This document shows positions 8,389 to 27,381 of a stretch of DNA of 28,026 nt, piece by piece. A program made the translations under genes and the position numbers. The first letter of the stretch is position 1. Each line of letters opens with the position of its first letter. The notes under the pieces are model-generated. The model was not told the origin of the DNA, searched no databases, and worked only from the letters and a program-made list of their open reading frames with translations. This DNA is from a virus (taxonomy: Duplodnaviria; Heunggongvirae; Uroviricota; Caudoviricetes), in the IMG/VR virus record IMGVR_UViG_2636415477_000009, positions 1-28,026 of that record; one strand, given 5' to 3'.

Positions 8389-8392
8389 GGTT

Positions 8393-9372: not shown

Positions 9373-9438
9373 AACGGGAAGGATGCCGCCGGGTCATACC
9401 GGCGGCAATGTGACGATGAGGTGTCGGGAATGGCACAA

Positions 9439-11297: not shown

Positions 11298-11311
11298 GGT
11301 GTTTACTCCGT

Positions 11312-12090: not shown

Positions 12091-12093
12091 GCG

Positions 12094-12297: not shown

Positions 12298-12806
12298 CAG
12301 ATTTGACTCACTATGCAGCGCGGCTTGTCCTGGATACGCGCCACTGCCCAGCGCATATCCCGCCACAGCTCATCAATGGTGCTGTCAATGCTGTCGGCCT
12401 TCTTGTCGCCTTTCGCACTGGCATCCACACCGCGATAACGTTCATAAAGCGACGCGGTCGCCATCGCACACACGGCGCGCTCGTAGTAAAAAACTTTGAT
12501 GCTTTCACCGTCGATGTCGTCCGCCGGGACGTCCGCCAGACGCGTAAAACCGGCGGCAATTTTCTGTTCGCGGTACTCGTACAGCTCCGCATTCGTCTCC
12601 GCCATGCCTGACTTGATGGCCTCACGCAGACGGGCGGGGGCGACGGTCTGCTCAAGGCGCATACGTTCCCGGACGCGCTTCGGGTCGATATCGGGAAAAA
12701 AGAACGTGTTTTTAATCACCGGCTCGTCGCCTGCCGGTTGCGGGATGACCACCGTACCCTCACCGGACACGGGAGCCTCCTTTCGCGGAATAATCAGCGT
12801 CATCAT
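12297..12806 (-). CDS. Head completion protein gpL
   Basis: About 169 aa from the internal start MMTLIIPRKEAPVSGEGTVV...; matches P2 gpL. Confidence 0.8.
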   Translation of the reverse strand: MMTLIIPRKEAPVSGEGTVVIPQPAGDEPVIKNTFFFPDIDPKRVRERMRLEQTVAPARLREAIKSGMAETNAELYEYREQKIAAGFTRLADVPADDIDGESIKVFYYERAVCAMATASLYERYRGVDASAKGDKKADSIDSTIDELWRDMRWAVARIQDKPRCIVSQI

Positions 12807-12905
12807 GACTACCTCTGAAAAGTCGGGCGGTGGACGCCGGTGCAGTGTCAGGTGATTCACCCTCACTGACCGGCGTGCCGCCCTGGCGCGGGGCGCATTC
12901 GGTTG

Positions 12906-13649
12906 TTAACTGGCTTTCTTTTTCGGGCGTCCACGTTTTGCCGGTGTCACGCTCCGGATCTTACGCGGGGCGCGGGTGGCCGCTTTGGGCTGCGGCTCCG
13001 GCTTCGGTTTCAGCTCCCGCTCCAGTCGTTCAATCTCTTTTTTGACGCCTGCCTGACAGTCGAGCTGTGTCGCACGTTGCAGGTGAGCCAGCGCACCGGC
13101 GGCATCACCACCGTCACGCAGAAACAGACCGGTGATTTTGTGCAGCTTTGCGCGCACTTCATCAGGCATGTCAGCCGTGGCGGTCAGTTCAAGGGTCTCC
13201 GTCAGCAGGCGGGTATCCACAGACTCACCGGCAGCGTGGGCACGCATGGCCGCAAGCGCTACCTCCTCGGTGAACATGTACGGCGGGGTACGGCGGTGTT
13301 TACCCGGCATGGTCAGACCGTACTTCAGGGCATAACGGGCAATCTCCAGCGCACCGGCAATATCGCCGGTATCCAGACGCCACAGCATGACCGTCATCAG
13401 AATGTCATCCTGTGCACCTTTGCCCTGCTCCAGCACGCCGTTCACCCACGGCAACCAGAACGGCAGCAGTTCGCGTTTTTTCGCGGCCTTCAGCTCTTTT
13501 GAATAAATCGCTTTCAGTGTGCGCTGGTCTGCGGCGAGCTTAACCAGCATCTGCTCATAGACAGTTGCATGTCGCAGCGGGGCGGCTTCCCGCTGCGCGG
13601 TCATCGCTGCCGAGACCCGCATCATGTGGCGCTGTGCGGGACTCGTCAT
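12906..13649 (-). CDS. Terminase small/endonuclease subunit gpM
   Basis: 247 aa; matches P2 gpM; basic C-terminal tail (KRGRPKKKAS). Confidence 0.85.
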   Translation of the reverse strand: MTSPAQRHMMRVSAAMTAQREAAPLRHATVYEQMLVKLAADQRTLKAIYSKELKAAKKRELLPFWLPWVNGVLEQGKGAQDDILMTVMLWRLDTGDIAGALEIARYALKYGLTMPGKHRRTPPYMFTEEVALAAMRAHAAGESVDTRLLTETLELTATADMPDEVRAKLHKITGLFLRDGGDAAGALAHLQRATQLDCQAGVKKEIERLERELKPKPEPQPKAATRAPRKIRSVTPAKRGRPKKKAS

Positions 13650-13652
13650 CGG

Positions 13653-14726
13653 TTACGCTCCCGGCTCTGCGGTCGCTTTAGCCAGTGTGGAGAAATCACC
13701 GACCTTAATTTTTTCCACCAGACAACCGGCGGCGTAGTCTTCCACCACGTAATCAATGTTCATTGACTCGTAGTTCTCCACGCGGTCGAGTTTCGGGTTT
13801 TCCTCAATCACGCGGCGATGGCTGTCATCCATGTAGTAGATGGACAGGTTTTCCAGCTTTGTGATGAGCATCGCATCCGCCGGGAAGTACGGGACGCGTA
13901 CCGCCGGCAGGTTACCGATGCGTTTCTGGCTGATGATGACGTCAGCGGCCAGCATTTCGCTGTTGTCCTGCTCCTTGTTGACGATGGGAAAATACTTGTC
14001 CGCCAGTAGCTGACGTCCCACAATCACCACAAGGTCAGGGTCTTCCTGATACCACGGCTCAATCAGGTTGTTGGTCGCATCCATCACCAGTGCGTCAAGG
14101 CTGGCATAATCACCGCCCTTACCCACGCGGATAACCTCAGAGGTGGTGTGCCCTTCCTCGTCAGTGACCTTGCTCATCACGCGCGCCGGGGCTTCATTGC
14201 GGTATTTCTGCAGCCAGCCGACCGCCACATCCTGCAGCATCGGATTGCTGCTGCGGTCAGAGGTTTCGGCACGCCTCACGCCGTTAAAACCGGCCATGAT
14301 TAAATCAAGGGACTGGCGTTTGATAATGGCGTTACGGACACGGAGCTGGAAATCCTGATAACGCGCCCACAGGTCCAGCGTTTTGTAGCGGATATAAAAA
14401 TCGAAGTTAATCTGGTCGCATTCGTACTTGTTTGACGCCAGCTTCGAGAAGTCCTTCGGCTGACGCTCGGTGCCACCGGCGGTGTCGGTGGTGCTGGCGA
14501 TGGAGCCGGTGACACCGATGCCAATTTTTTCCCCTTTCATTTCGCTGACCGGCACAATGTTGATGCGGGTCAGAAAGTCAGAGGACTCCTGCATGGTGTT
14601 CATCAGGGTCTGGGTGACCGACGGTTCAACGGTGAATTTTTTCGACACATCACCGGCGTCGATGCCGTTCAGTTCGGCAACACGGGACAGGTAGGCATTA
14701 AATTTAAAGCGGGTTTCCTGGCGCAT
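13653..14726 (-). CDS. Major capsid protein gpN
   Basis: 357 aa; MRQETRFKFNAYLSRVAELNGIDAGDVSKKFTVEPSVTQ... matches P2 gpN. Confidence 0.9.
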   Translation of the reverse strand: MRQETRFKFNAYLSRVAELNGIDAGDVSKKFTVEPSVTQTLMNTMQESSDFLTRINIVPVSEMKGEKIGIGVTGSIASTTDTAGGTERQPKDFSKLASNKYECDQINFDFYIRYKTLDLWARYQDFQLRVRNAIIKRQSLDLIMAGFNGVRRAETSDRSSNPMLQDVAVGWLQKYRNEAPARVMSKVTDEEGHTTSEVIRVGKGGDYASLDALVMDATNNLIEPWYQEDPDLVVIVGRQLLADKYFPIVNKEQDNSEMLAADVIISQKRIGNLPAVRVPYFPADAMLITKLENLSIYYMDDSHRRVIEENPKLDRVENYESMNIDYVVEDYAAGCLVEKIKVGDFSTLAKATAEPGA

Positions 14727-14784
14727 AGTTTTTCCTGAAATTAAGGGTTAATCGTGAAGGTTTTCCCGGACTGACTGACGCCGG

Positions 14785-15639
14785 TCAGCAGTTCGTCATC
14801 AGGGCGTCACCGCCACCACCGGTGGCCTTGCTGCGGCGCTGCTGGGTCAGACTTTCGGTGTGGTCGAGACTGTTTTTCAGGCGGGTGAATGCCTGGCTGG
14901 TTTCATCCGCCCTGTCAGTCACATCCTGCTTAAGTGCGGAAAAAGCGGTTTCCATCTCAGCGAGGCGCTGCTCAGTGGCGCTCAGTTTTTCCTGCACATG
15001 TTCAGCAACAGCGGTCACCGCTTCATGCACGTCATTCAGACGGGCGTCATCGCTGGCCTGTTTGCGGCCAAAAATGGACTTCACCTTTTCGGTCAGGGCG
15101 GTGAACACGGTTTCAGGCAGGTCTTCAAATTCCAGCTCAACGGGCGTTGCCACTGAAATCAGGTTTTCAGGGCTTAATTTGAAGCGGTTCAGGGGGTTGT
15201 GTTTTGCCGTGCGGCAGAATTCCAGGTATTCCGTGCCGAGGCTTGCCGGGTCATCGGTGACGGCCAGACCCACCAGATAACATTTGCCGGTGTTGGCAAA
15301 GTTCGGCTGAATTTCCATTGAGGTGTAGACCTTCTGCGCGGCCTTGTTCATCGCGATAAGGTCATCGGTCGGGGTGATTTTCGCAAACAGCGCCCATTTG
15401 CCTTTCAGCGCCGAATCATCGTCAATCTTTTCGGCCTTCAGTTCGACCACATCGCCATAACGCTTAAAAATACCGTCAGGCAGGATGCCGCGCAGATGTT
15501 CCAGGTTAATGCGGCAACCATAGACTCGCGGGTCAAAGGTTTCGGCCATTTCCTGAATATCCTGCGCACTGATGACACGCCCGTCACAGGTGTCACCCTC
15601 AACGCCGATACGAAAGAATTTTGAGACTTTTTTTGCCAT
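14785..15639 (-). CDS. Capsid scaffolding protein gpO
   Basis: About 284 aa from the internal start MAKKVSKFFRIGVEGDTCDGR...; matches P2 gpO. The tracked ORF extends to 15705. Confidence 0.85.
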   Translation of the reverse strand: MAKKVSKFFRIGVEGDTCDGRVISAQDIQEMAETFDPRVYGCRINLEHLRGILPDGIFKRYGDVVELKAEKIDDDSALKGKWALFAKITPTDDLIAMNKAAQKVYTSMEIQPNFANTGKCYLVGLAVTDDPASLGTEYLEFCRTAKHNPLNRFKLSPENLISVATPVELEFEDLPETVFTALTEKVKSIFGRKQASDDARLNDVHEAVTAVAEHVQEKLSATEQRLAEMETAFSALKQDVTDRADETSQAFTRLKNSLDHTESLTQQRRSKATGGGGDALMTNC

Positions 15640-15812
15640 TGTCAGGAGTCCTGAATAGTGATTAGAGGAGTCACATGTCGGCATCAGTTTCCCGACGATG
15701 CGCATCCTCCGCCATCAGTCCCGGATGGCTTATCACTGACACAACAGCACCTTAGCGAATCGCGGGGCGCGACTCAGTAGCCTTGCCGTGTATTCATCAC
15801 GGCGAGGTATTC
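15640..15812. promoter_or_regulatory. Divergent late-promoter region between gpO and gpP (expected Ogr-dependent)
   Basis: Intergenic region between the divergently transcribed O (minus) and P (plus) operons, where P2 has its Ogr-activated late promoters; the activator-site dyad itself was not confidently identified by eye. Confidence 0.4.
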
Positions 15813-17585
15813 ATGACCATCACCACAGACACCACTCTTTTGCACGACCCGCGTCGTCAGGCGGCGCTGCTGTACTGGCAGGGGTTTTCCGTGCCGCAGA
15901 TTGCCGCCATGTTGCAGATGAAACGCCCGACGGTGCAGAGCTGGAAACAGCGCGACGGCTGGGACAGCGTTGCCCCCATCAGCCGTGTCGAAATGAGTCT
16001 GGAAGCGCGGCTGACCCAGCTCATCATCAAACCGCAGAAAACCGGCGGTGACTTCAAGGAAATTGACCTGCTCGGACGCCAGATTGAACGACTGGCACGG
16101 GTAAACCGCTACAGCCAGACCGGCAACGAGGCAGACCTTAATCCGAACATCGCTAACCGCAACAAAGGCGGGCGGCGCAAACCGAAAAAGAATTTTTTCA
16201 GTGACGAGGCTATCGAAAAGCTGGAGCAGATTTTCTTTGAGCAGTCTTTCGAATATCAGTTGCACTGGTATCGCGCCGGGCTTGAGCACCGCATCCGCGA
16301 TATCCTGAAATCCCGCCAGATTGGCGCGACGTTTTATTTTTCCCGCGAGGCGCTGCTGCGCGCCCTGAAAACCGGTCATAACCAGATTTTTCTGTCGGCC
16401 AGTAAAACGCAGGCGTATGTGTTCCGCGAATACATCATCGCCTTTGCCCGGCTGGTTGACGTTGACCTGACCGGTGACCCGATTGTCCTGGGCAATAACG
16501 GCGCAAAACTGATTTTTCTCGGCACCAACTCCAACACCGCGCAGAGCCATAACGGCGACCTGTACGTCGACGAGATTTTCTGGATACCGAATTTTCAGGT
16601 ACTGCGTAAGGTGGCATCAGGTATGGCCTCACAGAGTCACCTGCGCTCGACCTATTTCTCCACCCCGTCCACGCTGGCGCACGACGCCTACCCGTTCTGG
16701 TCGGGTGAACTGTTCAACCGGGGACGCGCCAGCGCCGCCGAACGCGTGGAAATCGACGTCAGTCATAACGCTCTTGCCGGTGGGCTTCTCTGTGCGGACG
16801 GTCAGTGGCGGCAGATTGTCACCATTGAGGACGCGCTGAAAGGCGGCTGCACGCTGTTCGACATTGAGCAGCTCAAACGCGAAAACAGCGCCGACGATTT
16901 TAAAAACCTGTTCATGTGTGAATTTGTTGACGACAAGGCGTCAGTGTTCCCGTTCGAGGAGCTGCAACGCTGCATGGTCGACACGCTGGAAGAATGGGAA
17001 GACTACGCGCCGTTTGCCACCAATCCGTTCGGCTCCCGCCCGGTATGGATTGGTTACGACCCGTCACACCGTGGCGACAGCGCCGGATGCGTGGTGCTGG
17101 CACCGCCGGTGGTGGCCGGTGGCAAATTCAGAATACTTGAGCGCCATCAGTGGAAAGGCATGGACTTTGCCACCCAGGCGGAATCCATCCGCAAACTCAC
17201 TGAAAAATACAACGTCGAATACATCGGTATTGATGCCACCGGCCTCGGTGTCGGCGTGTTCCAGCTCGTGCGCTCGTTCTATCCCGCCGCGCGCGATATC
17301 CGCTACACGCCGGAAATGAAAACCGCAATGGTGCTCAAGGCAAAAGACGTTATCCGCCGTGGCTGTCTGGAATATGACGTCAGCGCCACCGACATCACCA
17401 GCTCGTTTATGGCTATCCGCAAGACCATGACCAGCAGCGGACGCAGCGCCACCTATGAGGCCAGCCGCAGCGAGGAAGCCAGCCACGCCGACCTCGCCTG
17501 GGCGACCATGCACGCCCTGTTAAATGAGCCACTCACCGCCGGTATCAGCACCCCGCTGACATCCACCATTCTGGAGTTTTACTGA
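15813..17585 (+). CDS. Terminase large subunit (ATPase) gpP
   Basis: About 590 aa from the internal start MTITTDTTLLHDPRRQAALLYWQGFSVPQIAAMLQ...; matches P2 gpP. Confidence 0.9.
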   Translation: MTITTDTTLLHDPRRQAALLYWQGFSVPQIAAMLQMKRPTVQSWKQRDGWDSVAPISRVEMSLEARLTQLIIKPQKTGGDFKEIDLLGRQIERLARVNRYSQTGNEADLNPNIANRNKGGRRKPKKNFFSDEAIEKLEQIFFEQSFEYQLHWYRAGLEHRIRDILKSRQIGATFYFSREALLRALKTGHNQIFLSASKTQAYVFREYIIAFARLVDVDLTGDPIVLGNNGAKLIFLGTNSNTAQSHNGDLYVDEIFWIPNFQVLRKVASGMASQSHLRSTYFSTPSTLAHDAYPFWSGELFNRGRASAAERVEIDVSHNALAGGLLCADGQWRQIVTIEDALKGGCTLFDIEQLKRENSADDFKNLFMCEFVDDKASVFPFEELQRCMVDTLEEWEDYAPFATNPFGSRPVWIGYDPSHRGDSAGCVVLAPPVVAGGKFRILERHQWKGMDFATQAESIRKLTEKYNVEYIGIDATGLGVGVFQLVRSFYPAARDIRYTPEMKTAMVLKAKDVIRRGCLEYDVSATDITSSFMAIRKTMTSSGRSATYEASRSEEASHADLAWATMHALLNEPLTAGISTPLTSTILEFY

Positions 17586-18619
17586 TGAGCAAGAAAAAAG
17601 GGAAAACACCGCAACCTGCGGCAAAAACAATGACCACCAGCGCCCCGAAAATGGAGGCATTCACCTTTGGTGAGCCGGTGCCGGTACTCGACCGCCGTGA
17701 CATTCTGGATTACGTCGAATGCATCAGTAACGGCAGATGGTATGAGCCACCGGTCAGCTTTACCGGTCTGGCAAAAAGCCTGCGTGCTGCCGTGCATCAC
17801 AGCTCACCGATTTACGTCAAACGTAATATTCTGGCCTCGACATTTATCCCGCATCCGTGGCTTTCCCAGCAGGATTTCAGCCGCTTTGTGCTGGATTTTC
17901 TGGTGTTCGGTAATGCGTTTCTGGAAAAGCGCTACAGCACTACCGGTAAGGTCATCAGACTGGAAACCTCACCGGCAAAATATACCCGCCGTGGCGTGGA
18001 GGAGGATGTTTACTGGTGGGTGCCATCCTTCAACGAGCCGACACCTTTCGCGCCCGGCTCCGTGTTTCACCTGCTGGAGCCGGATATCAATCAGGAGCTG
18101 TACGGCCTGCCGGAATATCTCAGCGCCCTTAACTCTGCCTGGCTGAATGAGTCGGCCACGCTGTTCCGCCGCAAGTATTACGAAAACGGCGCACATGCCG
18201 GATACATCATGTACGTCACCGATGCCGTGCAGGATCGCAACGATATCGAAATGCTTCGCGAAAACATGGTGAAGTCGAAAGGCCGCAACAACTTTAAAAA
18301 CCTGTTTCTCTACGCCCCACAGGGAAAAGCCGACGGTATTAAAATTATCCCGCTCAGTGAAGTGGCAACGAAGGACGATTTTTTTAATATCAAAAAAGCC
18401 AGCGCCGCAGACCTGCTGGACGCGCACCGCATCCCTTTTCAGTTGATGGGCGGCAAGCCGGAGAACGTCGGGTCGCTGGGTGATATTGAGAAAGTGGCAA
18501 AGGTCTTTGTCCGCAATGAGCTTATCCCGTTACAGGACAGGATCCGCGAGATAAACGGCTGGCTCGGTCAGGAGGTCATCCGCTTTAAAAACTACTCACT
18601 GGACACTGACAACGGCTGA
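17585..18619 (+). CDS. Portal protein gpQ
   Basis: 344 aa; matches P2 gpQ; start overlaps the P stop. Confidence 0.9.
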   Translation: MSKKKGKTPQPAAKTMTTSAPKMEAFTFGEPVPVLDRRDILDYVECISNGRWYEPPVSFTGLAKSLRAAVHHSSPIYVKRNILASTFIPHPWLSQQDFSRFVLDFLVFGNAFLEKRYSTTGKVIRLETSPAKYTRRGVEEDVYWWVPSFNEPTPFAPGSVFHLLEPDINQELYGLPEYLSALNSAWLNESATLFRRKYYENGAHAGYIMYVTDAVQDRNDIEMLRENMVKSKGRNNFKNLFLYAPQGKADGIKIIPLSEVATKDDFFNIKKASAADLLDAHRIPFQLMGGKPENVGSLGDIEKVAKVFVRNELIPLQDRIREINGWLGQEVIRFKNYSLDTDNG

Positions 18620-18624
18620 ACATC

Positions 18625-18646
18625 GCCGCCTGCGGGCGGCTTTTTT
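18625..18646 (+). terminator. Rho-independent terminator after gpQ
   Basis: gccgcctgcgggcggc hairpin followed by tttttt, a few bp after the Q stop. Confidence 0.7.
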
Positions 18647-18788
18647 ACACCCCGTCATCACGCCCTCACACGCTCACCACCGCACAAAACAGCCCGCATA
18701 CACACCAACGCCCCGGCGAACAATCCAAACGCCATCACGACGCGCTCAGACGCTGAAAAAATAAAATCAGCACCACCGCCAGCGCGCA

Positions 18789-18807
18789 GTGCTTTCCCCG
18801 CCTCGCC
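18789..18807. other. cos site (19-nt cohesive-end sequence)
   Basis: gtgctttccccgcctcgcc is the reverse complement of the P2 cohesive end GGCGAGGCGGGGAAAGCAC as I recall it; position next to Q matches P2. Confidence 0.75.
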
Positions 18808-19011
18808 CGCCCGCTTCGTGGGGCGGTTTTAATGCAGATGCATGTGAACACTCGAGATTGACTGGATAAGACCTAAGGTGCATTAATTTTTTGTTTTTTT
18901 ACATGCAGTTTGATGCAAGAACATGCCCTCTAAAGTCTTGGTTTAATGTGCTACACTTTTATACAAACCTATGATAAAAGCGATAAAAAATCTTCCATTT
19001 TGGCGAACATT

Positions 19012-19995
19012 ATGACGGATATTGAAACAGCTCGATGGAACACAGAAAGTGCCGCTTTGTTGGCACTATCAGAAATACATGGCGTTAGTTATTGGACTCT
19101 ATATAAAGTTGCTCAAAAGGGAATCAGATTTAGAGACATTGTTACCAGCCAAACATTAGCCAACTTTGAGTATCTACTTGGAGTAAAACTTCATCGCCAA
19201 CCTTATTATTTGAATGAAGGCAATTGGTCTGTTTTTCGGGACAGCATGATTTCTACGGCTAAAATATTACTCACACATTATCATAATAGTGGTTACAAAA
19301 TCATCCACCATGGTTCTCCGAGCTATCCAGACAAGTTGAATGACCTGTCTGAGCCGCCTTTCTGGTTGTTTGCTCAAGGCAATGTATCCTTGCTAGATAA
19401 AAAGTGTGTTGGAGTTGTCGGCACCAGAAACCCAACCGCACTTGGAATTTATTTAACTCAAGCAGTAATCTCGCAATTTATAGATTCGGATTATTCAACT
19501 GTAAGCGGTTTAGCATATGGTATAGATCAATCTGCACATGAAGCATCCCTGTTATTTAAAATACCGACAATTGCTGTGTTAGGTACTGGCGTAAACTCAA
19601 ATTATCCCAAAAATAGTGGCGAGATGAGAGGCCATATTGTAAATAATGGCGGACTGATTCTTACTGAGTATTTACCAAACCAAAAACCATCACAGGAAAA
19701 CTTTGTTCGTAGAAATAGAATTCAAGCAGCTTTAAGTGATGTATTGATCCCAGTTGAATGGGGCCTAAAAAGTGGGACATCTCATACTGTGAGATATGCT
19801 GCTCAATTAAAAAGAGCGATACTTTGTCCTTTACTTAGGGGAACTACACCTCAAGAAGAGATTAAACATGCCTTGTCAGAGTACTCAGCTACGATAATGA
19901 ATATTCCACTATCCGATTTTAAAGACGTGCAAAGCTTAATTAAATCAGCATCCGGTGTAAAAACACAGCAACTTTCTCTTCTGGGAGATGAATAA
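19012..19995 (+). CDS. DprA/Smf-like (SLOG-type Rossmann fold) protein; first gene of the hotspot cargo operon
   Basis: Motifs matching the DprA family: PDKLNDLSEPPFWLFAQGNVSLL, GVVGTRNPTALG, SGLAYGIDQSAHEASL, IAVLGTGVNSNYPKNSGEM, ENFVRRNRIQAALSDVLIPVEWGLKSGTSHT. AT-rich. Start uncertain: ATG at 19012 (MTDIE...) preferred, upstream in-frame ATG at 18946 possible. Confidence 0.75.
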   Translation: MTDIETARWNTESAALLALSEIHGVSYWTLYKVAQKGIRFRDIVTSQTLANFEYLLGVKLHRQPYYLNEGNWSVFRDSMISTAKILLTHYHNSGYKIIHHGSPSYPDKLNDLSEPPFWLFAQGNVSLLDKKCVGVVGTRNPTALGIYLTQAVISQFIDSDYSTVSGLAYGIDQSAHEASLLFKIPTIAVLGTGVNSNYPKNSGEMRGHIVNNGGLILTEYLPNQKPSQENFVRRNRIQAALSDVLIPVEWGLKSGTSHTVRYAAQLKRAILCPLLRGTTPQEEIKHALSEYSATIMNIPLSDFKDVQSLIKSASGVKTQQLSLLGDE

Positions 19996-19996
19996 T

Positions 19997-21271
19997 ATGT
20001 ATTTAAAGGCAGTTATATTTTCAATCGCAGATGTTGTATTACCATTAACATCTAACACTCAACCTCAGGAACTAAAATCTAGAATCGACTCTGAATTACG
20101 TAAGTTGTTTGCGTTTTTGTCATCAAAAGGGATTAAAGTTATCTTCTTGACAAATAAAAATAGAAACGTGAGAACACATGACGGGATCGTAACACTAGAC
20201 GAATACCTAAAAAGGAAATTCCCAGAATCAATTCACTTTTGCCGTGAACTCGACAACAACATACCAGCAAAACAAACAGGGAAGGCCATAGATTTCATCA
20301 TGGCTGCGTTAGAATTAAAACGAAACGAAATGATCTATGTAGGGCGTTCTCAGGAAGACTTACAAGCAGCTACCAACGGGAATACCCTATTTATTAATGC
20401 GACCTGGTATGAACCGGTTACTGAGTACGGTTTTCAATTTTCAGAACCCAAAGAAATCGCTAGATTTATTGATGTCTTTTGCTTAAGAGAGCAGTTGTGG
20501 GGATGGCAAGGGCATTTTAATGAAGATGTTCACTACTACGCCTTAGCACCATTTAGCACATATGTCCCTGAATTTACAATGTATTCAGCCAATGCAAGAG
20601 ACCTCGCAAAGCTATCGGTTGGAAGCCCCGATTTTTGGATAAGATATCTTGGTGCTAGCATTTATTTCTCTGGCTTAAGTGAAGGAGCAAGTTTTATAAC
20701 CACCTACGTTGGACATAACGCTGAAGATCCTTATAAACTAGCAAACATTATGGAGCATGACCTAAAAGGTTTAGCAGTCTCATTCAAAGGAAAGTATCTA
20801 AAAGATCTATTCTTACGACATACAACAGCTATTAAATCACAGCAAGCTCGGATAGCTAAGCAAGAAGTAAACATCACATCTCAAATAAACACCGTTAATT
20901 TAAATCCTGCCCCTATTAAAAACCTCATCACCGGCGAAAGATATACCAACCCTCCTAAATTGAAAGGTAAGAAAATATTAGTTATTGATGATTTTTGCAC
21001 TGAAGGAAATGCTCATGAAACAGCCAGAATGTATCTAAAAGCTGCAGGCGCAAATGTAATAAATATATCGTGGTTAAAAACCATCAATCGTGACGTTTCT
21101 ATCTGTGAACCAACTCGCAAGATACGGCCATGGGAGGCCAATACACTTGATGTTGATGACATTAACTATGTCGGTACGATTGGTTATGCTGAAAATGTAA
21201 CTCACGGTAGTGCACCTCAAGTGTTATCAGAAAAAATTCAACAATATGATAACTGGGACTGGCCACAATAA
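19997..21271 (+). CDS. Phosphoribosyltransferase-domain protein (C-terminal type-I PRT motif; N-terminal ~300 aa unassigned, possibly degenerate HAD-like); second cargo gene
   Basis: C-terminal KGKKILVIDDFCTEGNAHETARMYLKAAGANV fits the PRPP-binding loop of type-I PRTases. N-terminus has AVIFSIADVVLPLT and MIYVGRSQEDL, weakly reminiscent of HAD motifs I and IV. SD-like gggag precedes the ATG at 19997; an ATG at 19988 overlaps the upstream stop. Confidence 0.7.
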   Translation: MYLKAVIFSIADVVLPLTSNTQPQELKSRIDSELRKLFAFLSSKGIKVIFLTNKNRNVRTHDGIVTLDEYLKRKFPESIHFCRELDNNIPAKQTGKAIDFIMAALELKRNEMIYVGRSQEDLQAATNGNTLFINATWYEPVTEYGFQFSEPKEIARFIDVFCLREQLWGWQGHFNEDVHYYALAPFSTYVPEFTMYSANARDLAKLSVGSPDFWIRYLGASIYFSGLSEGASFITTYVGHNAEDPYKLANIMEHDLKGLAVSFKGKYLKDLFLRHTTAIKSQQARIAKQEVNITSQINTVNLNPAPIKNLITGERYTNPPKLKGKKILVIDDFCTEGNAHETARMYLKAAGANVINISWLKTINRDVSICEPTRKIRPWEANTLDVDDINYVGTIGYAENVTHGSAPQVLSEKIQQYDNWDWPQ

Positions 21272-21287
21272 ATTAATCCCATAATTT

Positions 21288-21317
21288 AAAGTGCCCCCTA
21301 ATAATGGGAGGCACTTT
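21288..21317. terminator. Bidirectional terminator between the cargo operon and gene A
   Basis: Palindrome aaagtgccccc-taataat-gggaggcacttt with T/A runs on both sides, between convergent genes ending at 21271 (+) and 21447 (-). Confidence 0.55.
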
Positions 21318-21446
21318 AAATATTAAGAAGATAATGTCATTAAGCGAAATTTAACTATAATTTAAAACATTACAATTATTATTTTTTAAAGTTTACTATT
21401 ACCCAATCCATCAATAAGACCTGTATTTATTCGTAATTTAATAGCC

Positions 21447-23702
21447 TTACCACTCATCAATCACTGGATATTTGAATTTTTTATTATCATAAATCACCAT
21501 CGCCCCACGCGCCAGCGCCTCAAGCTCCCATCGCTGAGGCCTGATACCGTTCTGAGCAAGGTCAACGCGGATACGGGTAATTTGCAATCGTTCCGGCCGG
21601 GTCAGCCTGGCCGATGGTGCAATTTCATGTGGTTTTAACGGGCTTCCGTTTCTTTGCTGACGATTTGGTGTTCTCAGGCCGTGTTTTAATGCGCCCCTGA
21701 GCACCCTCACGACCTCCGGGTCATTCCATTCGATAACACCGTCATCAACCAGATTAAGCACTGCTGCGGCGTGTTCAGAAGGTGTGGGAGCCGGTAACGA
21801 AGTATCACCACTGGTGAGCTTTCCACAGTTATTGACAGGACTCCGAGGCGCGGCGATGCCGCTTTTTAAAGTCAAAGGCTCAACGACCGGCACTTTCGGA
21901 ACAATGCGCCAGTCCGTCGTTCTGGTGATATGAATATGACGCGCGCCGAGATGCGGCGCGTAAATGCCGACCACTCTCTCGACTTCTTCCTCGTACTCGT
22001 TAACTTCATCCGACGGACTACGGGCAACCCTGACAGTCTGACAATCGCGCGGGACATTTGCCCCGCCCTGCGCGCTGATATACAGCGCAAAATCGCCACT
22101 GTCTGCGGCGGCGCGTGCAGCCTCCACGCGTTCGTCAAATTCATCAGCAATGCTGACGCCGCGAGGCAATTTACGTAGCTCACGGTAAGCTCCCATTGTC
22201 GGCAGGCCAACCGTTTTAAATTGCGGGATGCGCCACGTTGACGCCCATGCGGTAACAGCCGCCGCAGTATCTTTCAGCGGTCTGCCGGTATCGTTATCGA
22301 GCTGACCGTCCAGTGCATAGCCGTCGATATTTTTTGAAATGTATTTCGCGATATATCCCGCAGCACCGCCCCGGTTAAGGTGTTTTGCCTGAAAACGGTT
22401 TCGCGCGGCTCCTCTTTCGTCGCCATCCTCTTTGAGCGCATAGCGACGCATGATTTCGATAATCTGGTTACGCTGGCGTGGATTACAAAAAAGCATCATA
22501 TGCCAGTGCGGCGTTCCGTCGTGGTGTGGCTCGACGACTCGCAAACCGTAGACCTGTAAATCATTATCCTTGAATGCCGTGCGCATCAGGCTCCAGATAC
22601 GGCAGAGATAACGCTGCGCATCCTTTGGATTAAATGCCTCATCGTTCCAGCCGTGATTAAGCTGGACGGTTTTACTTTCGCCTTTTCCGACCTGACGTGT
22701 CGGGTGATACTTTGACGGCGCGGTCAGCGTGATAAACATGCCCACATCGCCCTCTGCGGCGGCGTAACGCTCAATACCGGCAATGGTGTTCATCAGCTCC
22801 ATCCGGCGAATTTCAGGATTAGAAATACTGCCCATCACCTTACTGATAAGGTCGATGCGCTCGCCGGTTTCCCTGTTTTCAAGGTCACACGATTTAAGAA
22901 ATTCCAGATTTGCCTGGCGGCGCGCACGCACATCACGAATGGCATGTTTACTGGCATAAGGAGAACGGTCTTTATTGACCTCCCCGACAGCAATCAGTAA
23001 CGCCTCATGCCAGCGCATACGCTGGCCTTTAAGCTGATGAGTCCACCACTCATCGTTAAACAGACGGGCAATGGCAGAATATGCCTGCCTCGTGGTCATC
23101 TGTCCTTTACGGTATTTTTTCCAGTAGAGAGGGGAAATATTGAAAGCACGTGCAGCGCCAGCAACATGACCATACAGATGCGCCTGCGCCTCATCTGTAA
23201 ACAGCGATTCTTTCTCGCCATGTGCATCAACCCATGCATCGCAGAGTTCCTCATACATCATGAAAAGCTGCGATGAGATACGGGCGGCAAACTTTTTCAG
23301 CTCCTTGTCATTCATCCCCGGCAGACGCGCATAATGGTCACGCTCTGCCAGAAACAGCAACGACGCGTCGGTATTCATTTCATGGCGCTGATTCACGCGC
23401 TCAATACGCGGCCATAAACGGCGCTGAAAAGTGGATGTGAGGAAATAAAACCCGTGCACCGGGCTTTTATTGCGCCGGATGTAGTCATAGCGTGAAGTAA
23501 ACAGCGAGCGCAAAAAGTAAGGCAGGCGATTAATCGTGGATAAAACACCTTGCACCTGACGCATCTCGTCACGTGTAAGGGGTCTTTCGCGCCCGACGGC
23601 CTCGCGTGGCGCGTTCCATGCATAAGCACCGGTAAACGTCTCACCGGTGCCTGCGGCAAATACTGACGGAGGGACAAAACGCCCGGAGGCTTTAACGGCC
23701 AT
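21447..23702 (-). CDS. Replication initiation protein gpA (rolling-circle initiator)
   Basis: About 751 aa from the internal start MAVKASGRFVPPSVFAAGTGETFTGAYAWNAPREAV...; matches P2 gpA. The tracked ORF extends to 23744. Confidence 0.9.
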   Translation of the reverse strand: MAVKASGRFVPPSVFAAGTGETFTGAYAWNAPREAVGRERPLTRDEMRQVQGVLSTINRLPYFLRSLFTSRYDYIRRNKSPVHGFYFLTSTFQRRLWPRIERVNQRHEMNTDASLLFLAERDHYARLPGMNDKELKKFAARISSQLFMMYEELCDAWVDAHGEKESLFTDEAQAHLYGHVAGAARAFNISPLYWKKYRKGQMTTRQAYSAIARLFNDEWWTHQLKGQRMRWHEALLIAVGEVNKDRSPYASKHAIRDVRARRQANLEFLKSCDLENRETGERIDLISKVMGSISNPEIRRMELMNTIAGIERYAAAEGDVGMFITLTAPSKYHPTRQVGKGESKTVQLNHGWNDEAFNPKDAQRYLCRIWSLMRTAFKDNDLQVYGLRVVEPHHDGTPHWHMMLFCNPRQRNQIIEIMRRYALKEDGDERGAARNRFQAKHLNRGGAAGYIAKYISKNIDGYALDGQLDNDTGRPLKDTAAAVTAWASTWRIPQFKTVGLPTMGAYRELRKLPRGVSIADEFDERVEAARAAADSGDFALYISAQGGANVPRDCQTVRVARSPSDEVNEYEEEVERVVGIYAPHLGARHIHITRTTDWRIVPKVPVVEPLTLKSGIAAPRSPVNNCGKLTSGDTSLPAPTPSEHAAAVLNLVDDGVIEWNDPEVVRVLRGALKHGLRTPNRQQRNGSPLKPHEIAPSARLTRPERLQITRIRVDLAQNGIRPQRWELEALARGAMVIYDNKKFKYPVIDEW

Positions 23703-23967
23703 ATGAGCCAAAAGCCTCTGAACAACGCTTGCTGAGTTGCTCAACCTGCGCGTTTAAATCAGCAAAAGACTTTGCGCTTCCGGTCAGAATATCGTGATGC
23801 ATCAGGCCGGAAACGAGCTGGCTTAATTTCGGGTAATAACCAACCACCGCCAGCCATTCCTGACCGGCGTTTTTACCGCTTTCAGCTCTCTTTTTCTCGT
23901 GGAGAATAAACTGAAAGCTGTCACTGGTAACGACATAACGTTCGCCAATTTCAATACGAATACTCAT
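23692..23967 (-). CDS. Small early-operon protein (P2 orf83 position)
   Basis: 91-aa ORF overlapping the A start; one of four small ORFs between B and A, as in P2. Confidence 0.6.
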   Translation of the reverse strand: MSIRIEIGERYVVTSDSFQFILHEKKRAESGKNAGQEWLAVVGYYPKLSQLVSGLMHHDILTGSAKSFADLNAQVEQLSKRCSEAFGSYGR

Positions 23968-24188
23968 GCCGTTCTCCGGTAATGTTTGTTTTTTGCTTCA
24001 AAGACTGACTGGCAGGAAACACAACGCGTGGCTGACGGATAAGCCGCACGACGGGCAGCAGGTATTGGCGCGTCACACTCTTCGCAAACCAGCGCAGAAA
24101 CACCGCAATGCTTTACCCTTGCCGCGTTAATCTGGCGCTCCAGTAATTCAGCCTGTTGTTCCTGAATAAAATCTACGTTGTCCGGCAT
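23964..24188 (-). CDS. TraR/DksA-family C4 zinc-finger protein (P2 orf82 position)
   Basis: 74 aa with a CxxC...CxxC motif (CEECDAPIP...CVSCQ), typical of the TraR/DksA zinc finger. Confidence 0.7.
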   Translation of the reverse strand: MPDNVDFIQEQQAELLERQINAARVKHCGVSALVCEECDAPIPAARRAAYPSATRCVSCQSVFEAKNKHYRRTA

Positions 24189-24493
24189 TACCAGCTCCTT
24201 TTGTCGTTAAGTTTTTTAAATTCATCAGCGCAATAGCTGGCAATTTCTGTCGTTAATTTCGTCAGTTCATCCACGGAGGAGATTTGCTTGTGAAATACAG
24301 CGCGTTTAACAAGTAAATTGACCACATCAGACAGGAGATTTAATTCGTTCTGATAAATCGCGATAACAGACTCAGTTATTTCGCGTTTTTCTTTATCAAG
24401 ACCAAGTTGAATAAGAGATAAATCGCCATTTTTCATAACGGCGATTTTTAAGGCGTTATTCAGTAATACAACTGAACGAGAACAGGACATCAA
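24188..24493 (-). CDS. Small early-operon protein (P2 orf81 position)
   Basis: 101-aa ORF with overlapping start/stop codons to its neighbours, consistent with a coupled operon. Confidence 0.55.
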
Positions 24494-24747
24494 AGCACCT
24501 CCCCGCGAGACAATCCAATATTGTGAAATTTTTCCGACTCCTGACTGAGCAGCTCTACTATCTCCACGCGGGATAACTCCGCCTTTGTGATGTGGCGAAT
24601 CATGGCGTCAAGATGAGAAGAAAAGCGCGTCGCTGCGTCGGCCTGTGCTTCGGTTCTGGCCTGTTGCAGCAGTAATGCGTATTTACCGCACTGATTTTCA
24701 GAAACTGTATGCATGACTTTCTCCAGGCAAAAAGAAGCCCCGCACAA
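24490..24747 (-). CDS. Small early-operon protein (P2 orf80 position); start may be the internal ATG at 24714
   Basis: 85-aa ORF immediately downstream of B on the same strand. Confidence 0.5.
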
Positions 24748-24777
24748 TTAAGTGCGTTAAAAACTCTGGTTAATTAC

Positions 24778-25284
24778 TTAATGCAGATATTGCTCTGGTT
24801 TTACCGACGTCAGAATTGTCGGTGCATACTCAAACAGGCTGAATAATTCACGTAATGCACGGAATAAAGCATCACGCCAGTAACATGATTCTTCATTAAT
24901 TCGCCAGTATGGCTGGTTGAATTCTTTTTCAGTCAATCCGGCATGCATAAATAAAGTACGACGCTGACTGACTGTTAAAAAACTAATATATGCATACTCA
25001 CTTGCGCCAACCTGACGGCGTTTTGAGAATGCCCCACGCAATTCATCAATTGCGCAAACCAGCCGTTCACGTTCGACGTCGTTCATTTCTTCAAAACGCA
25101 TCGTTGCGTGACGTTGTTTTAACTGCGCATGAAAGCAAACTGTTAGCCGTTCGCGCTCCATCATCTGATTATAATAATCACATGTATCCTGCCAGCGAGG
25201 AACGGCAAGATGCTTACCAATTATCCGACGCATGGTTGCTGGCTGTTTTTCAACGAGATTGAGCGTCATCACTGTCATTTCCAT
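24778..25284 (-). CDS. Replication protein gpB
   Basis: 168 aa; MEMTVMTLNLVEKQPATMRRIIGKHLAVPRWQDTCDYYNQMMERERL... matches P2 gpB. Confidence 0.9.
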   Translation of the reverse strand: MEMTVMTLNLVEKQPATMRRIIGKHLAVPRWQDTCDYYNQMMERERLTVCFHAQLKQRHATMRFEEMNDVERERLVCAIDELRGAFSKRRQVGASEYAYISFLTVSQRRTLFMHAGLTEKEFNQPYWRINEESCYWRDALFRALRELFSLFEYAPTILTSVKPEQYLH

Positions 25285-25469
25285 ACCCTCCGGCTTTTCA
25301 GAAAGGTCAGAGCCTTTTTTAACGGACTCTGTTTTTTGGTGCGGATAATGATTCCCTTACGCCCCTTACCGTGGGTGATGGTGAAGTCAATCGCCCTGGG
25401 GCTTTCGTTACGCAGTAACTGAGCAATACAACGAGGCTCATTCATACGGTTCTCCTTAACGTGGTTCAC
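25275..25469 (-). CDS. Small early protein (P2 orf78 position)
   Basis: 64-aa ORF between cox and B with overlapping termini. Confidence 0.5.
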   Translation of the reverse strand: MNHVKENRMNEPRCIAQLLRNESPRAIDFTITHGKGRKGIIIRTKKQSPLKKALTFLKSRRVWK

Positions 25470-25731
25470 CGAGACCTAACCACATCAACCAGCCGTCACG
25501 AATCTCTTTAGGGCGGCTTTCATAAGCCAGTTTTAGTCCGTTATTCCATGCCGGAAGGTATACCCAATATTCACCTGCACGACCTGAAGCTGATTGTGGA
25601 TCGGTCATATCAATTACAGGCAGCTTTCCTTTATCGATCATCCGACGAACCGCTCCTGTCGATTTTCCTATTAGTTTTGCGAACTCCTGATAAGGAATCG
25701 CATCAGTCATGAGTGTTACTTGCTTACTCAT
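25456..25731 (-). CDS. cox: Cox (excisionase and transcriptional regulator of the lysogeny switch)
   Basis: 91 aa; MSKQVTLMTDAIPYQEFAKLIGKSTGAVRRMIDKGKLPVIDMTDPQSASGRAGEYWVYLPAWNNG... matches P2 Cox. Confidence 0.9.
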   Translation of the reverse strand: MSKQVTLMTDAIPYQEFAKLIGKSTGAVRRMIDKGKLPVIDMTDPQSASGRAGEYWVYLPAWNNGLKLAYESRPKEIRDGWLMWLGLGEPR

Positions 25732-25845
25732 GTCGTCCTCCAGCCCTCATGAATTGCGTTTAATGCCTTATAATGCCTTTTAGTGCCCACATCCAAGCAC
25801 TAAACAATCTACATCTAAACTAAATACTATTGAGATCTAAACACC
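25732..25845. promoter_or_regulatory. Lysogeny switch region between cox and C (face-to-face early and repressor promoters with operator repeats)
   Basis: Intergenic region between the cox and C genes. Direct repeat atctaaac at 25813..25820 and 25835..25842 (22 bp apart), a plausible repressor operator pair; a tataat-like cttataatg lies upstream. Confidence 0.5.
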
Positions 25846-26145
25846 ATGTCAAACACGATAAGCGAGAAGATAGTCTTAATGCGAAAATCAGAGTATTTGA
25901 GCAGACAACAACTTGCTGATTTAACAGGGGTTCCGTATGGCACGCTGAGTTACTATGAAAGTGGTCGTTCAACACCTCCAACAGATGTCATGATGAACAT
26001 CCTGCAGACCCCACAATTCACCAAATACACTTTATGGTTCATGACCAATCAGATCGCTCCTGAGTCCGGGCAAATTGCGCCCGCTCTCGCACACTTTGGG
26101 CAAAACGAAACAACGTCGCCCCACTCCGGTCAAAAGACTGGTTAA
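25846..26145 (+). CDS. C: Immunity repressor C
   Basis: 99 aa; MSNTISEKIVLMRKSEYLSRQQLADLTGVPYGTLSYYESGRSTPPTDVMM... matches P2 C; HTH motif. Confidence 0.9.
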   Translation: MSNTISEKIVLMRKSEYLSRQQLADLTGVPYGTLSYYESGRSTPPTDVMMNILQTPQFTKYTLWFMTNQIAPESGQIAPALAHFGQNETTSPHSGQKTG

Positions 26146-26260
26146 CAATTCATCGTGAATATATTCATTACAAGTGCCTACTATTGGTGGCTAAATTTCA
26201 GCCACCACGAAAAAAGCGATTAGTAGTCGCAAAAAAACACACCACTCGGAGGGTTTTCTG

Positions 26261-27274
26261 ATGGCAATCAAAAAACTCGATGATGGTCGATATGAAGTGG
26301 ACATCCGCCCTACTGGACGTAATGGAAAACGCATCCGTAGGAAGTTTGATAAGAAAAGCGAAGCTGTCGCTTTCGAGAAATACACGTTGTACAACCACCA
26401 CAATAAAGAATGGCTATCAAAACCAACAGACAAACGACGTCTGTCGGAACTGACACAGATCTGGTGGGATTTAAAGGGTAAACACGAAGAGCATGGGAAA
26501 TCTAATCTTGGAAAAATTGAAATCTTCACAAAAATAACGAATGACCCATGCGCATTTCAAATCACGAAATCCCTTATCAGCCAGTACTGCGCCACCCGAA
26601 GAAGTCAGGGTATTAAACCTTCGAGTATCAATCGTGATTTAACATGTATTAGCGGCATGTTTACAGCCCTGATTGAAGCGGAGTTATTCTTTGGTGAGCA
26701 CCCTATCAGAGGGACAAAGAGGCTTAAGGAGGAAAAACCAGAAACAGGCTATCTCACACAGGAAGAAATTGCCTTACTGCTTGCAGCACTTGACGGCGAC
26801 AATAAAAAGATTGCGATTCTTTGCCTGAGTACAGGAGCACGTTGGGGAGAAGCAGCTCGTTTGAAAGCAGAAAATATCATCCATAACCGCGTCACGTTTG
26901 TTAAAACGAAAACAAACAAACCACGCACCGTCCCGATCTCAGAGGCTGTTGCCAAAATGATCGCGGATAACAAACGAGGTTTTTTATTCCCTGGTGCTGA
27001 TTACCCTCGCTTCAGACGAACAATGAAAGCAATAAAACCGGATTTGCCAATGGGGCAAGCCACACATGCACTAAGGCACAGCTTTGCCACTCATTTCATG
27101 ATTAATGGAGGAAGTATTATCACGCTACAACGGATACTAGGTCACACGCGGATTGAGCAAACGATGGTTTACGCTCATTTTGCGCCAGAGTACCTTCAGG
27201 ACGCCATTTCTCTTAATCCGCTAAGAGGTGGTACTGAGGCCGAGAGTGTCCACACAGTGTCCACAGTAGAGTAA
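26261..27274 (+). CDS. int: Tyrosine integrase
   Basis: 337 aa; C-terminal HALRHSFATHFMINGGSIITLQRILGHTRIEQTMVYAHF carries the R..HxxR..Y catalytic signature; adjacent to attR. Confidence 0.9.
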   Translation: MAIKKLDDGRYEVDIRPTGRNGKRIRRKFDKKSEAVAFEKYTLYNHHNKEWLSKPTDKRRLSELTQIWWDLKGKHEEHGKSNLGKIEIFTKITNDPCAFQITKSLISQYCATRRSQGIKPSSINRDLTCISGMFTALIEAELFFGEHPIRGTKRLKEEKPETGYLTQEEIALLLAALDGDNKKIAILCLSTGARWGEAARLKAENIIHNRVTFVKTKTNKPRTVPISEAVAKMIADNKRGFLFPGADYPRFRRTMKAIKPDLPMGQATHALRHSFATHFMINGGSIITLQRILGHTRIEQTMVYAHFAPEYLQDAISLNPLRGGTEAESVHTVSTVE

Positions 27275-27353
27275 CGTTTAAGGGCTTTCAGTGGTAATTT
27301 ATGCCGCTCAAACCCGCATTGTACCGTTGAAAGCCCCTACTGGTGACACCCTG

Positions 27354-27381
27354 AATCTCCCTTACACGGGCTTATTTTTTA
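27354..27381. repeat. Prophage attachment core, right copy (attR)
   Basis: aatctcccttacacgggcttatttttta, identical to 3209..3236; 80 bp downstream of int. Confidence 0.8.

Follow-up and report, generated by a model that had tools for sequence, protein, structure and literature searches.

What is encoded by the AT-rich gene pair that separates cos from replication gene A in this P2-like prophage, and does it act against phages? The stretch analysed here (the window) comprises 28,026 nt of DNA, and the sequence-only reading of it had proposed a gene for a DprA-like protein and a gene for a phosphoribosyltransferase (PRTase)-domain protein as a candidate anti-phage system. Our analysis identifies the pair, with a probability of about 95%, as ShosTA, a type IV toxin–antitoxin system with anti-phage activity that here forms the cargo of the cos-adjacent hotspot of a P2-like prophage.

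The cos-adjacent slot and its flanks

The interval corresponds to the P2 cos-adjacent hotspot defined by Rousset et al. 2022 (PMC9122126), as had been proposed. It extends from cos to gene A, with Q and A as flanking genes; the backbone is kept on both sides and the content between is variable, and the slot is also home to further defence systems, old and tin among them. The elements of the locus are listed below.

17585..18619, plus strand: portal gene Q (344-aa ORF; 'portal protein' in Peduovirus P24C9 and PGAP), left backbone flank
18789..18807, no strand assigned: cos cohesive-end sequence, read directly (reverse complement GGCGAGGCGGGGAAAGCAC)
18807..18830, plus strand: GC-rich hairpin and TTTT abutting cos (terminator-like match at 18807..18826), last conserved backbone element before the cargo
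18837..21446, no strand assigned: variable cargo of the P2 cos-adjacent hotspot, here assigned to ShosTA (divergence from P2, GC 0.37; old/tin/orf91 slot in P2)
18837..19011, plus strand: upstream non-coding region, expected to hold the native shosTA promoter (clones with the region work from the 'native promoter')
21284..21321, no strand assigned: strong hairpin where the genes shosT (plus) and A (minus) converge
21447..23702, minus strand: replication gene A (ORF; 'replication endonuclease' in PGAP, 'nicking at origin of replication' in P24C9), stop at 21447, right backbone flank

The string GGCGAGGCGGGGAAAGCAC, the reverse complement of 18789..18807, is presumably the P2 cohesive-end sequence. 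It is also present in the P2 and P4 clones of Rousset et al. 2022, and the linear record of P24C9 terminates within the cos sequence. P2 and the window are alike through ttttaatgca (to 18836) and diverge from 18837 onwards, and P2 itself matches only 53 nt of 18800..21450. P24C9 shows 100% identity over the cassette region and 96.7–98.8% identity to the backbone of the window. Of 5426 complete E. coli genomes, 30 contain at least 80% of the region; in the records listed it lies between phage genes that flank the DprA gene. The order of DprA gene followed by PRTase gene is kept on plasmids of five other genera (five loci).

The cassette had been described as much more AT-rich than the phage backbone, and its GC content is indeed 0.371 (18853..21446) compared to 0.569 (6341..18788) and 0.481 (21447..27388). 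GC3 amounts to 0.29 and 0.32 in the two cassette genes versus 0.655 in the portal gene and 0.543 in gene A. Of the terminators that had been placed on each side of the cassette, the upstream part holds: the consensus scan gave two terminator-like hairpins, one behind Q (18625..18640) and one, with TTTT after it, at 18807..18826. The downstream part does not hold in this form, as the hairpin at 21284..21321 has no U-tract and was not called by the same scan. It is nevertheless a strong hairpin (MFE -21.8 kcal/mol, z = -4.92, with 0 of 200 shuffles folding as well) and possibly terminates transcription in both directions. In the region upstream of shosA the consensus scan gave no promoter call, the 7 promoter-like sites being no more than the 7.9 ± 2.8 in shuffles; by eye, TTGACT (18858..18863) together with TG-cattaa (18879..18886) might serve as a candidate. 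An Rfam scan of the whole window returned CyaR alone, with no match in the cassette.

Gene pair, start sites and protein identity

Two co-oriented, coupled ORFs are present as had been described, 18946..19995 (plus strand, 349 aa) and 19988..21271 (plus strand, 427 aa), with the stop of the first at 19993..19995 and ATGs for the second at 19988 and 19997. Genes and domains were assigned as follows.

19012..19995, plus strand: shosA, DprA-like antitoxin, 327 aa (PADLOC, Pfam, PDB, PGAP start; alternative ATG 18946)
19012..19293, plus strand: SAM-like domain of shosA (limits from PMC11961720)
19294..19950, plus strand: Rossmann/DprA domain of shosA (limits from PMC11961720)
19951..19992, plus strand: unstable C-terminal tail of shosA (limits from PMC11961720)
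19997..21271, plus strand: shosT, toxin, 424 aa (PADLOC, PDB, residue mapping; alternative ATG 19988, giving 427 aa)
19997..20488, plus strand: HAD-like N-terminal domain of shosT (weak Pfam HAD matches)
20489..21268, plus strand: non-canonical PRTase domain of shosT (weak Pfam PRT match)
20987..20992, plus strand: D331/D332 of shosT (residue mapping)

The identity of the proteins was settled by PADLOC profiles, a check that had been suggested from the sequence, and by comparison with the PDB. The ShosA profile PDLC02997 matched with E = 2.2e-231 (aa 23–349 on profile positions 1–327 of 327) and the ShosT profile PDLC03012 with E = 4e-296 (positions 1–427 of 427). Structures 8ZVB, 8ZVC and 8ZVD are 100% identical to the window ShosT (427/427 aa) and 9W2P and 9W2Q near-identical, while 9VZO and 8ZVA are 100% identical to residues 23–349 of the window ShosA (327/327). 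Entries 8ZVA–8ZVD come from Pu et al. 2025 (PMC11961720) and 9VZO, 9W2P and 9W2Q from Yang et al. 2026 (PMC12961424). All published functional residues were found in the window, K200, R206 and N211 in ShosA and H240, K280, R285, D331, D332 and E336 in ShosT. The layout also agrees with ShosTA, shosA lying 5' of and adjacent to shosT with both genes on the plus strand.

The ShosA start is likely at 19012 (327 aa), because PGAP, Table S2A of Rousset et al. and both crystal papers use this ATG, and because the PADLOC model covers only aa 23–349 of the longer ORF. ShosT likely starts at 19997 (424 aa), because the published residue numbering fits only that start; a GGGAG Shine-Dalgarno sequence at 19983..19987 lies 9 nt ahead of this ATG and directly abuts the one at 19988 (0 nt). 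The two genes are therefore 1 nt apart, whereas a start at 19988 would give an 8-nt overlap.

ShosTA is thus already known: the system has a name, solved structures and a validated defence phenotype. The DprA-like/PRTase pair that the sequence-only reading placed among hotspot systems comes from Rousset et al. 2022, where the same locus was tested. The mechanism had been taken as not established; it has in fact been studied in PMC11961720 and PMC12961424 on proteins identical to those of the window. With the exact pair already characterised mechanistically, the premise of novelty falls, while the annotation stands. Recognition of a real defence cassette from the raw sequence is of value as a positive control.

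Defence phenotype and proposed mechanism

The cloning and phage challenge that the sequence-only reading recommended had already been published. Protection against T7 and lambda was obtained with plasmid pFR105, whose insert is the E. coli APEC O1 counterpart of window positions 18599..21466 and encodes the same two proteins (Rousset et al. 2022, PMC9122126). The assignment as a candidate anti-phage system agrees both with the PADLOC call and with published protection by identical proteins. The window ShosTA sits in the same phage hotspot where ShosTA was first validated. Pu et al. 2025 (PMC11961720) reported T7 plating reduced 10^6-fold and culture collapse at MOI 2. The cloned locus has been described as showing abortive-infection-like behaviour, but since early culture collapse was absent at high MOI (PMC11961720), classical abortive infection is not clearly shown. 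A preprint by Millman lists ShosTA as a defence system and notes that a shosA deletion could not be transformed.

This last result also bears on a different reading of the locus, in which ShosTA would mainly be an addiction or stabilisation module that keeps a now-defective prophage in the chromosome, with phage defence as a side effect. In favour of this reading, ShosT and ShosA form a true toxin–antitoxin pair whose antitoxin is unstable, and the cassette remains intact within a defective prophage from which about 10.6 kb of tail genes has been lost beside an ISEc12. The region of the IS/deletion junction, 2900..7000, is matched over at most 83% of its length in any complete E. coli genome. 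We nevertheless consider this reading unlikely in view of the strong reduction in T7 plating, the protection against lambda and the presence of defence systems such as old and tin in the same slot; moreover, the addiction and defence roles are mutually compatible.

For ShosTA as a defence system, we propose that infection would release ShosT that is already present in the cell. Release could follow either or both of two routes: host shutoff by T7 Gp0.7 may cut off the supply of new ShosA, which is short-lived, and ShosA may be titrated off RecA by phage ssDNA or replication intermediates. Freed ShosT would then halt replication of cell and phage, either by consumption of PRPP or through a phosphoribosylated product.

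As to the trigger, Pu et al. 2025 (PMC11961720) found that Gp0.7, chloramphenicol and rifampicin act as triggers and that ShosA decays after infection, whereas in the model of Yang et al. 2026 phage ssDNA or replication intermediates displace ShosA from RecA, in place of transcription shutoff and ShosA decay. The latter model draws on the inhibition of ShosA–RecA binding by excess ssDNA and on RecA-binding mutants that have no antitoxin activity (PMC12961424), and escape mutations of T7, SECphi4 and SECphi18 are reported to fall in SSB and primase-helicase. It is built, however, on pull-down experiments in vitro and on an interface predicted by AlphaFold 3, and sits less easily with the observations that co-expression of T7 SSB with ShosTA is non-toxic while Gp0.7 is lethal, that chloramphenicol or rifampicin alone activates the system and that the level of ShosA drops after infection. 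We would put displacement by ssDNA at somewhat below even odds as the trigger in place of shutoff, and the two may act together.

The description of gene 2 by its PRTase motif was correct, although it missed the HAD-like N-terminal domain. The Pfam match of the PRTase domain to PF00156 is weak (E = 1.1e-4, 22 bits, below the gathering cut-off of 26.3), but crystal structures of the 100% identical protein show bound PRPP (PMC11961720, PMC12961424). The VIDDF string noted earlier is part of a VIDDFCTEG motif in which D331, D332, T335 and G337 are invariant in the homologue alignment, as in a type I phosphoribosyltransferase, and the PRPP-binding residues are invariant among homologues at 32–43% identity. 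ShosT alone is toxic. Mutation of the acidic pair, which had been suggested as an experiment, was likewise already in print: D331A/D332A abolishes the toxicity, as does R285E, so that PRPP binding by the PRTase domain is needed (PMC11961720, PMC12961424). Expression of identical proteins has been reported to perturb purine metabolism and to cause filamentation and genome duplications. The PRTase is described as monomeric and non-canonical, with a fold similar to adenine PRTase; ShosT binds PRPP, yet none of the purines tested (PMC11961720).

The weakest step of the proposed mechanism is the coupling of the ShosT reaction to pyrophosphate hydrolysis by the N-terminal domain. Pfam HAD matches to this domain do not reach the gathering score and extend over the C-terminal half of the profile only. 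In HAD-superfamily phosphatases, strand 1 ends in motif I, a DxD with the Asp nucleophile, and motif IV contributes acidic residues. In six aligned ShosT homologues the nucleophile position reads S/S/G/S/S/S, with motif I placed by eye without a profile alignment, and the first position of motif IV is R/A/A/S/S/S, so that the Asp nucleophile of a HAD phosphatase is absent in 6 of 6. A phmmer search of the domain against the PDB gave a marginal match to the HAD protein 2HI0 (E = 0.23, motifs II–IV without motif I), and BLASTP against a HAD hydrolase of P24C9 gave E = 0.09 over 26 aa only. T/S52, N53, K92 and D121 are conserved across the homologue alignment and R56 is not. The published PPase activity was Mg-independent, and R56A hardly lowered toxicity (PMC11961720). 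Because the nucleophile is absent in every homologue compared and the mutated R56 is not conserved, the N-terminal domain might be a pseudo-enzyme that binds phosphate or the acceptor, or has a regulatory role, and does not hydrolyse pyrophosphate, with the PRTase killing by a phosphoribosylated product or by PRPP drain and not by a coupled reaction. We regard this as a tentative and rather doubtful proposal; if it is true, the published ShosT enzymology is incomplete.

For gene 1, the DprA-like assignment was confirmed by Pfam PF02481 (DNA_processg_A, E = 9.8e-60), and the GVVGTRNP motif is present. The NCBIfam cut-offs for dprA equivalogs are not reached (TIGR00732, 171 vs 191.15 bits; NF008007, 128.3 vs 495 bits); ShosA has a DprA fold, but is not a DprA equivalog. 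It neutralises ShosT without binding it, and this requires ssDNA binding, dimerisation and direct contact with RecA through K200 and R206 (PMC11961720, PMC12961424). Full-length ShosA is unstable owing to its C-terminal tail (PMC11961720), and it has been reported to promote deletions between short repeats. Binding of ssDNA and RecA, the short-repeat deletions, the strong Pfam match and the resemblance of ShosT to adenine PRTase would also suit a metabolic or recombination cargo in place of immunity, with ShosA as a phage recombination or DNA-uptake mediator with true DprA function and ShosT as a nucleotide-salvage enzyme. We consider this highly improbable: ShosA stays under the equivalog cut-offs, ShosT is lethal on its own, binds no common purine and is a monomeric, non-canonical PRTase, and a defence phenotype has been demonstrated.

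Comparison with known systems

The closest relatives are the ShosTA systems of APEC O1 and KTE181, which have the same proteins, gene order and cos-adjacent P2 hotspot as the window. At the DNA level the comparison with the pFR105 insert covers 18599..18997, plus primers and proteins; the upstream cargo DNA of the APEC O1 clone is identical over 18824..18997, and nine substitutions fall in the backbone and cos-side flank (18650..18823). Unlike in the APEC O1 case, the carrier prophage of the window has the ISEc12-associated deletion; no functional difference was noted. Proteins identical to those of the window are covered by three independent published data sets.

PsyrTA/RqlHI likewise pairs a DprA-like antitoxin with a PRTase-domain toxin, and its cells filament. 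The PADLOC PsyrA model matches the window ShosA with E = 3.8e-24, and no match to the PsyrT model was obtained from the window ShosT. In place of the HAD-like N-terminal domain of ShosT, the PsyrT/RqlH toxin has a RecQ-like helicase region. With DprA/Smf of natural transformation ShosA shares the SAM-like and Rossmann folds, ssDNA binding, dimer formation and RecA binding, but it is encoded by a phage-cargo gene with a toxin partner and acts as antitoxin rather than in DNA uptake. The old/tin/orf91 genes of P2 occupy the same slot between cos and gene A and are also AT-rich and anti-phage, whereas their genes and mechanisms are unrelated to ShosTA. Retrons with PRTase effectors resemble ShosTA in using a PRTase-domain effector in an abortive-infection-type system; in contrast to them, the two-gene cassette has no reverse transcriptase or msDNA partner, and its antidote is DprA-like.

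The cargo slot of a defective P2-like prophage

In the window, a P2-like prophage has inserted at the 3' end of cyaR, with 96.7–98.8% identity to the Peduovirus P24C9 and 100% identity to it over 18800..21450. The prophage and its cargo slot, the hotspot adjoining cos, are framed by the following features:

1703..3064: yegQ (peptidase U32), upstream of the prophage
3147..3232: CyaR/RyeE sRNA at the left prophage end (Rfam, 100.7 bits)
3209..3236 and 27354..27381: 28-nt att core AATCTCCCTTACACGGGCTTATTTTTTA, present at each end of the prophage; the one on the left overlaps the CyaR 3' end
3735..6340: ISEc12 (IS21 family), with istA at 4580..6121 (minus strand) and istB at 3819..4568 (minus strand)
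17585..18619, plus strand: portal gene Q, left flank of the slot (ORF call, annotation)
18625..18640: terminator-like hairpin after Q, upstream of the cargo (scan)
18807..18826: terminator-like hairpin with TTTT, adjoining cos, upstream of the cargo (scan)
18946..19995, plus strand: gene 1, 349 aa in its long form (ORF call; stop at 19993..19995)
19988..21271, plus strand: gene 2, 427 aa in its long form (ORF call; ATGs at 19988 and 19997)
Stop at 21447, minus strand: replication gene A, right flank of the slot (ORF call, annotation)

ISEc12 is bordered on one side by what is left of late gene D and on the other by a truncated tail-fibre gene (6236..6946). It stands in place of about 10.6 kb of P24C9 (12449..23069) comprising the C-terminus of the tail fibre, the gene for fibre assembly, a cargo pair of NUDIX and HAD genes, sheath, tube, tape-measure, U and most of D. 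Because this gene block is replaced, the prophage is defective, with the ShosTA cassette still intact. The exact ISEc12 junction pair was shared by none of the complete E. coli genomes in the collection; the cassette region was found at ≥80% coverage in 30 of 5426. A 404-aa ORF of the host flank (1..1215, minus strand), which lies upstream of yegQ, gave a weak PcfJ-like domain match (7.5e-6).

The sequence-only reading had placed two co-oriented AT-rich genes between cos and gene A, and the ORFs, the base composition and the flanking genes Q and A bear this out. Read on the opposite strand, 18789..18807 is GGCGAGGCGGGGAAAGCAC, which we take to be the P2 cohesive end (cos). The same string is also found in P2 and P4 clones of Rousset et al. 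(PMC9122126). GC content is 0.33–0.42 across the gene pair and 0.50–0.61 in the flanks; measured directly, it is 0.371 in the cargo (18853..21446) and 0.569 (6341..18788) and 0.481 (21447..27388) in the backbone. GC3 is 0.29 and 0.32 in the two cargo genes versus 0.655 in the portal gene and 0.543 in gene A. A terminator had been proposed on each side of the pair, which held upstream, where both terminator-like hairpins lie; the downstream element (21284..21321) forms a strong hairpin (-21.8 kcal/mol, z = -4.9), but lacks a U-tract and gave no match in the terminator scan. The best promoter-like match of the region (21334..21361, plus strand; ATGTCA, 16 nt, TATAAT; 10/12) lies in the AT-rich spacer 3' of shosT and would transcribe the 3' end of gene A in antisense; it is probably a chance match, as such sites are no more numerous in the region than in shuffled sequences.

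Identity of the two proteins and their start codons

Both proteins were named over their full length by PADLOC, gene 1 as ShosA (2.2e-231) and gene 2 as ShosT (4e-296). The DprA-like assignment of gene 1 is supported by Pfam (DNA_processg_A, 9.8e-60) and by 100% identity of residues 23–349 to the ShosA structures 9VZO and 8ZVA. For gene 2 the Pfam matches to PRTase and HAD are both below threshold, yet its 427 residues are 100% identical to ShosT in 8ZVB, 8ZVC and 8ZVD and almost the same as in 9W2P and 9W2Q, so the PRTase motif was rightly recognized; the N-terminal HAD-like domain had been overlooked. Because of these PADLOC, Pfam and PDB identities, the pair is the characterised ShosTA system itself rather than a homologue of a known system.

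Public records conflict on both start codons, with P24C9 using 18946 and 19997 and PGAP using 19012 (giving 327 aa) and 19988. ShosA begins MTDIETARW in the table of Rousset et al. (PMC9122126) and in both crystal constructs, and in the long ORF the PADLOC ShosA model spans only residues 23–349; the extra 22 codons at the 5' end in the P24C9 record (18946..19011) are probably not translated. The entry for ShosT in the same table begins MYLKAV, and the published numbering (N53, K54, R56, K92, H240, K280, R285, D331, D332, E336) is compatible only with ATG 19997 (424 aa). A GGGAG at 19983..19987 lies 9 nt before this ATG and immediately adjoins ATG 19988. On the grounds of Shine-Dalgarno spacing and published residue numbering we favour 19012 for ShosA and 19997 for ShosT. 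The tight coupling noted earlier is upheld, with the start of gene 2 settled toward 19997, which leaves 1 nt between the genes; shosA and shosT are translationally coupled with either ShosT start.

Published defence activity and mechanism

Rousset et al. 2022 (PMC9122126) described the hotspot adjoining cos in P2-like phages and reported that a DprA and PRTase pair from it, tied to shosTA, guards against T7 and lambda; this is the DprA-like/PRTase pair that the sequence-only reading had placed among such hotspot systems. According to their Table S2A, plasmid pFR105, from E. coli APEC O1, carries these two proteins. Its primers were placed on the window at 18599 and 21447..21466, and the 399 nt of insert compared show nine differences from the window, none of them beyond 18823 and thus all on the backbone side. 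The cloning and phage challenge suggested earlier have therefore already been published, and the presumed anti-phage role agrees with both the PADLOC call and the protection by the APEC O1 locus. ShosTA is also listed as a toxin–antitoxin defence system in the preprint of Millman et al., where the shosA deletion was untransformable.

Pu et al. 2025 (PMC11961720), who used the APEC O1 genes with their native promoter, report T7 plating reduced 10^6-fold and cultures that stop growing at MOI 2. ShosT alone is toxic and is rescued by ShosA, whose ssDNA binding is required for rescue. In the crystal structures, residues 1–164 of ShosT form a hydrolase domain and residues 165–424 a PRTase domain, and the protein binds PRPP, but none of the tested purines; D331A/D332A abolished toxicity and R56A had only a marginal effect. 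The cells are described as filamentous, with disturbed purine metabolism and duplications in the genome; T7 Gp0.7, chloramphenicol and rifampicin act as activators, and the ShosA level drops after infection. Yang et al. 2026 (PMC12961424; E. coli KTE181 genes) confirm the structures, find that ShosT and ShosA do not bind each other, and report toxicity abolished by R285E and by D331A/D332A. ShosA dimerises and contacts RecA via K200 and R206, and because surplus ssDNA inhibits RecA binding, phage ssDNA is proposed as a trigger. Escape mutations are reported in SSB and primase-helicase. It has thus been shown that ShosT is a PRPP-dependent toxin, that ShosA is an unstable antitoxin which binds ssDNA and RecA and acts indirectly, and that cells with the locus are protected from T7 and lambda. 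Infection would take away ShosA function by host shutoff and ShosA decay, by competition from phage ssDNA, or by both, and ShosT already present would then block host and phage replication via disturbed nucleotide metabolism.

Regarding residue names, the PRPP-binding section of PMC12961424 gives 'H204' as a PRPP contact; the identical window protein has Ala 204 and the mutant tested was H240E, so that 'H204' is evidently a misprint of H240. 'D336' of the same paper corresponds to E336 in the window protein.

The ShosT family and its HAD-like domain

The window ShosT was aligned with homologues encoded on plasmids of Pseudomonas fragi, Piscirickettsia salmonis, strain NT-25, Sinorhizobium alkalisoli and Paracoccus denitrificans, five sequences at 32–43% identity. 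At the PRPP site, H240, K280, R285, D331, D332, T335 and G337 are invariant in all six sequences. A C-terminal WDWP motif (W-D/V-W-P, 21257..21268) is likewise kept, with W420, W422 and P423 invariant; it is not mentioned in the available text of either structural paper (PMC11961720, PMC12961424). The plasmid homologues keep the DprA-then-PRTase gene order. In strain NT-25 (L007, 3065..4598) and S. alkalisoli (L008, 3079..4612) a second, convergent pair, consisting of a DprA-like gene and a 219-aa hypothetical gene, directly follows the ShosTA-like pair and may represent the short ShosT subtype (PADLOC PDLC03961/03962), back to back. On pBma45 of Bermanella marisrubri (L005, 1769..2996) the ShosT homologue is annotated as separate HAD family hydrolase and phosphoribosyltransferase ORFs with a 148-nt gap; the gene is either a pseudogene with a frameshift or a natural two-domain split.

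HAD enzymes carry an Asp nucleophile in motif I and acidic positions in motif IV. In the N-terminal domain of the window ShosT (19997..20488) the putative nucleophile site reads FSIADVV, and with the position placed by eye the Asp is absent from all six sequences (S/S/G/S/S/S). Motif IV has R/A/A/S/S/S at its first acidic position, and R56, the residue mutated to probe the 'PPase' function, varies; N53, K92 and D121 are the same in all six, with either Thr or Ser at position 52. PMC11961720 describes a Mg-independent PPase activity, and the missing nucleophile is discussed neither there nor in PMC12961424. Together, the N-terminal pattern, the lack of Mg dependence and the marginal effect of R56A cast doubt on the proposed PPase coupling and make it the weakest link in the published mechanism. 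The remark concerns ShosTA enzymology generally and not the present locus, where nothing is new: ShosTA is already known, named and validated in the same hotspot, and its structures are solved.
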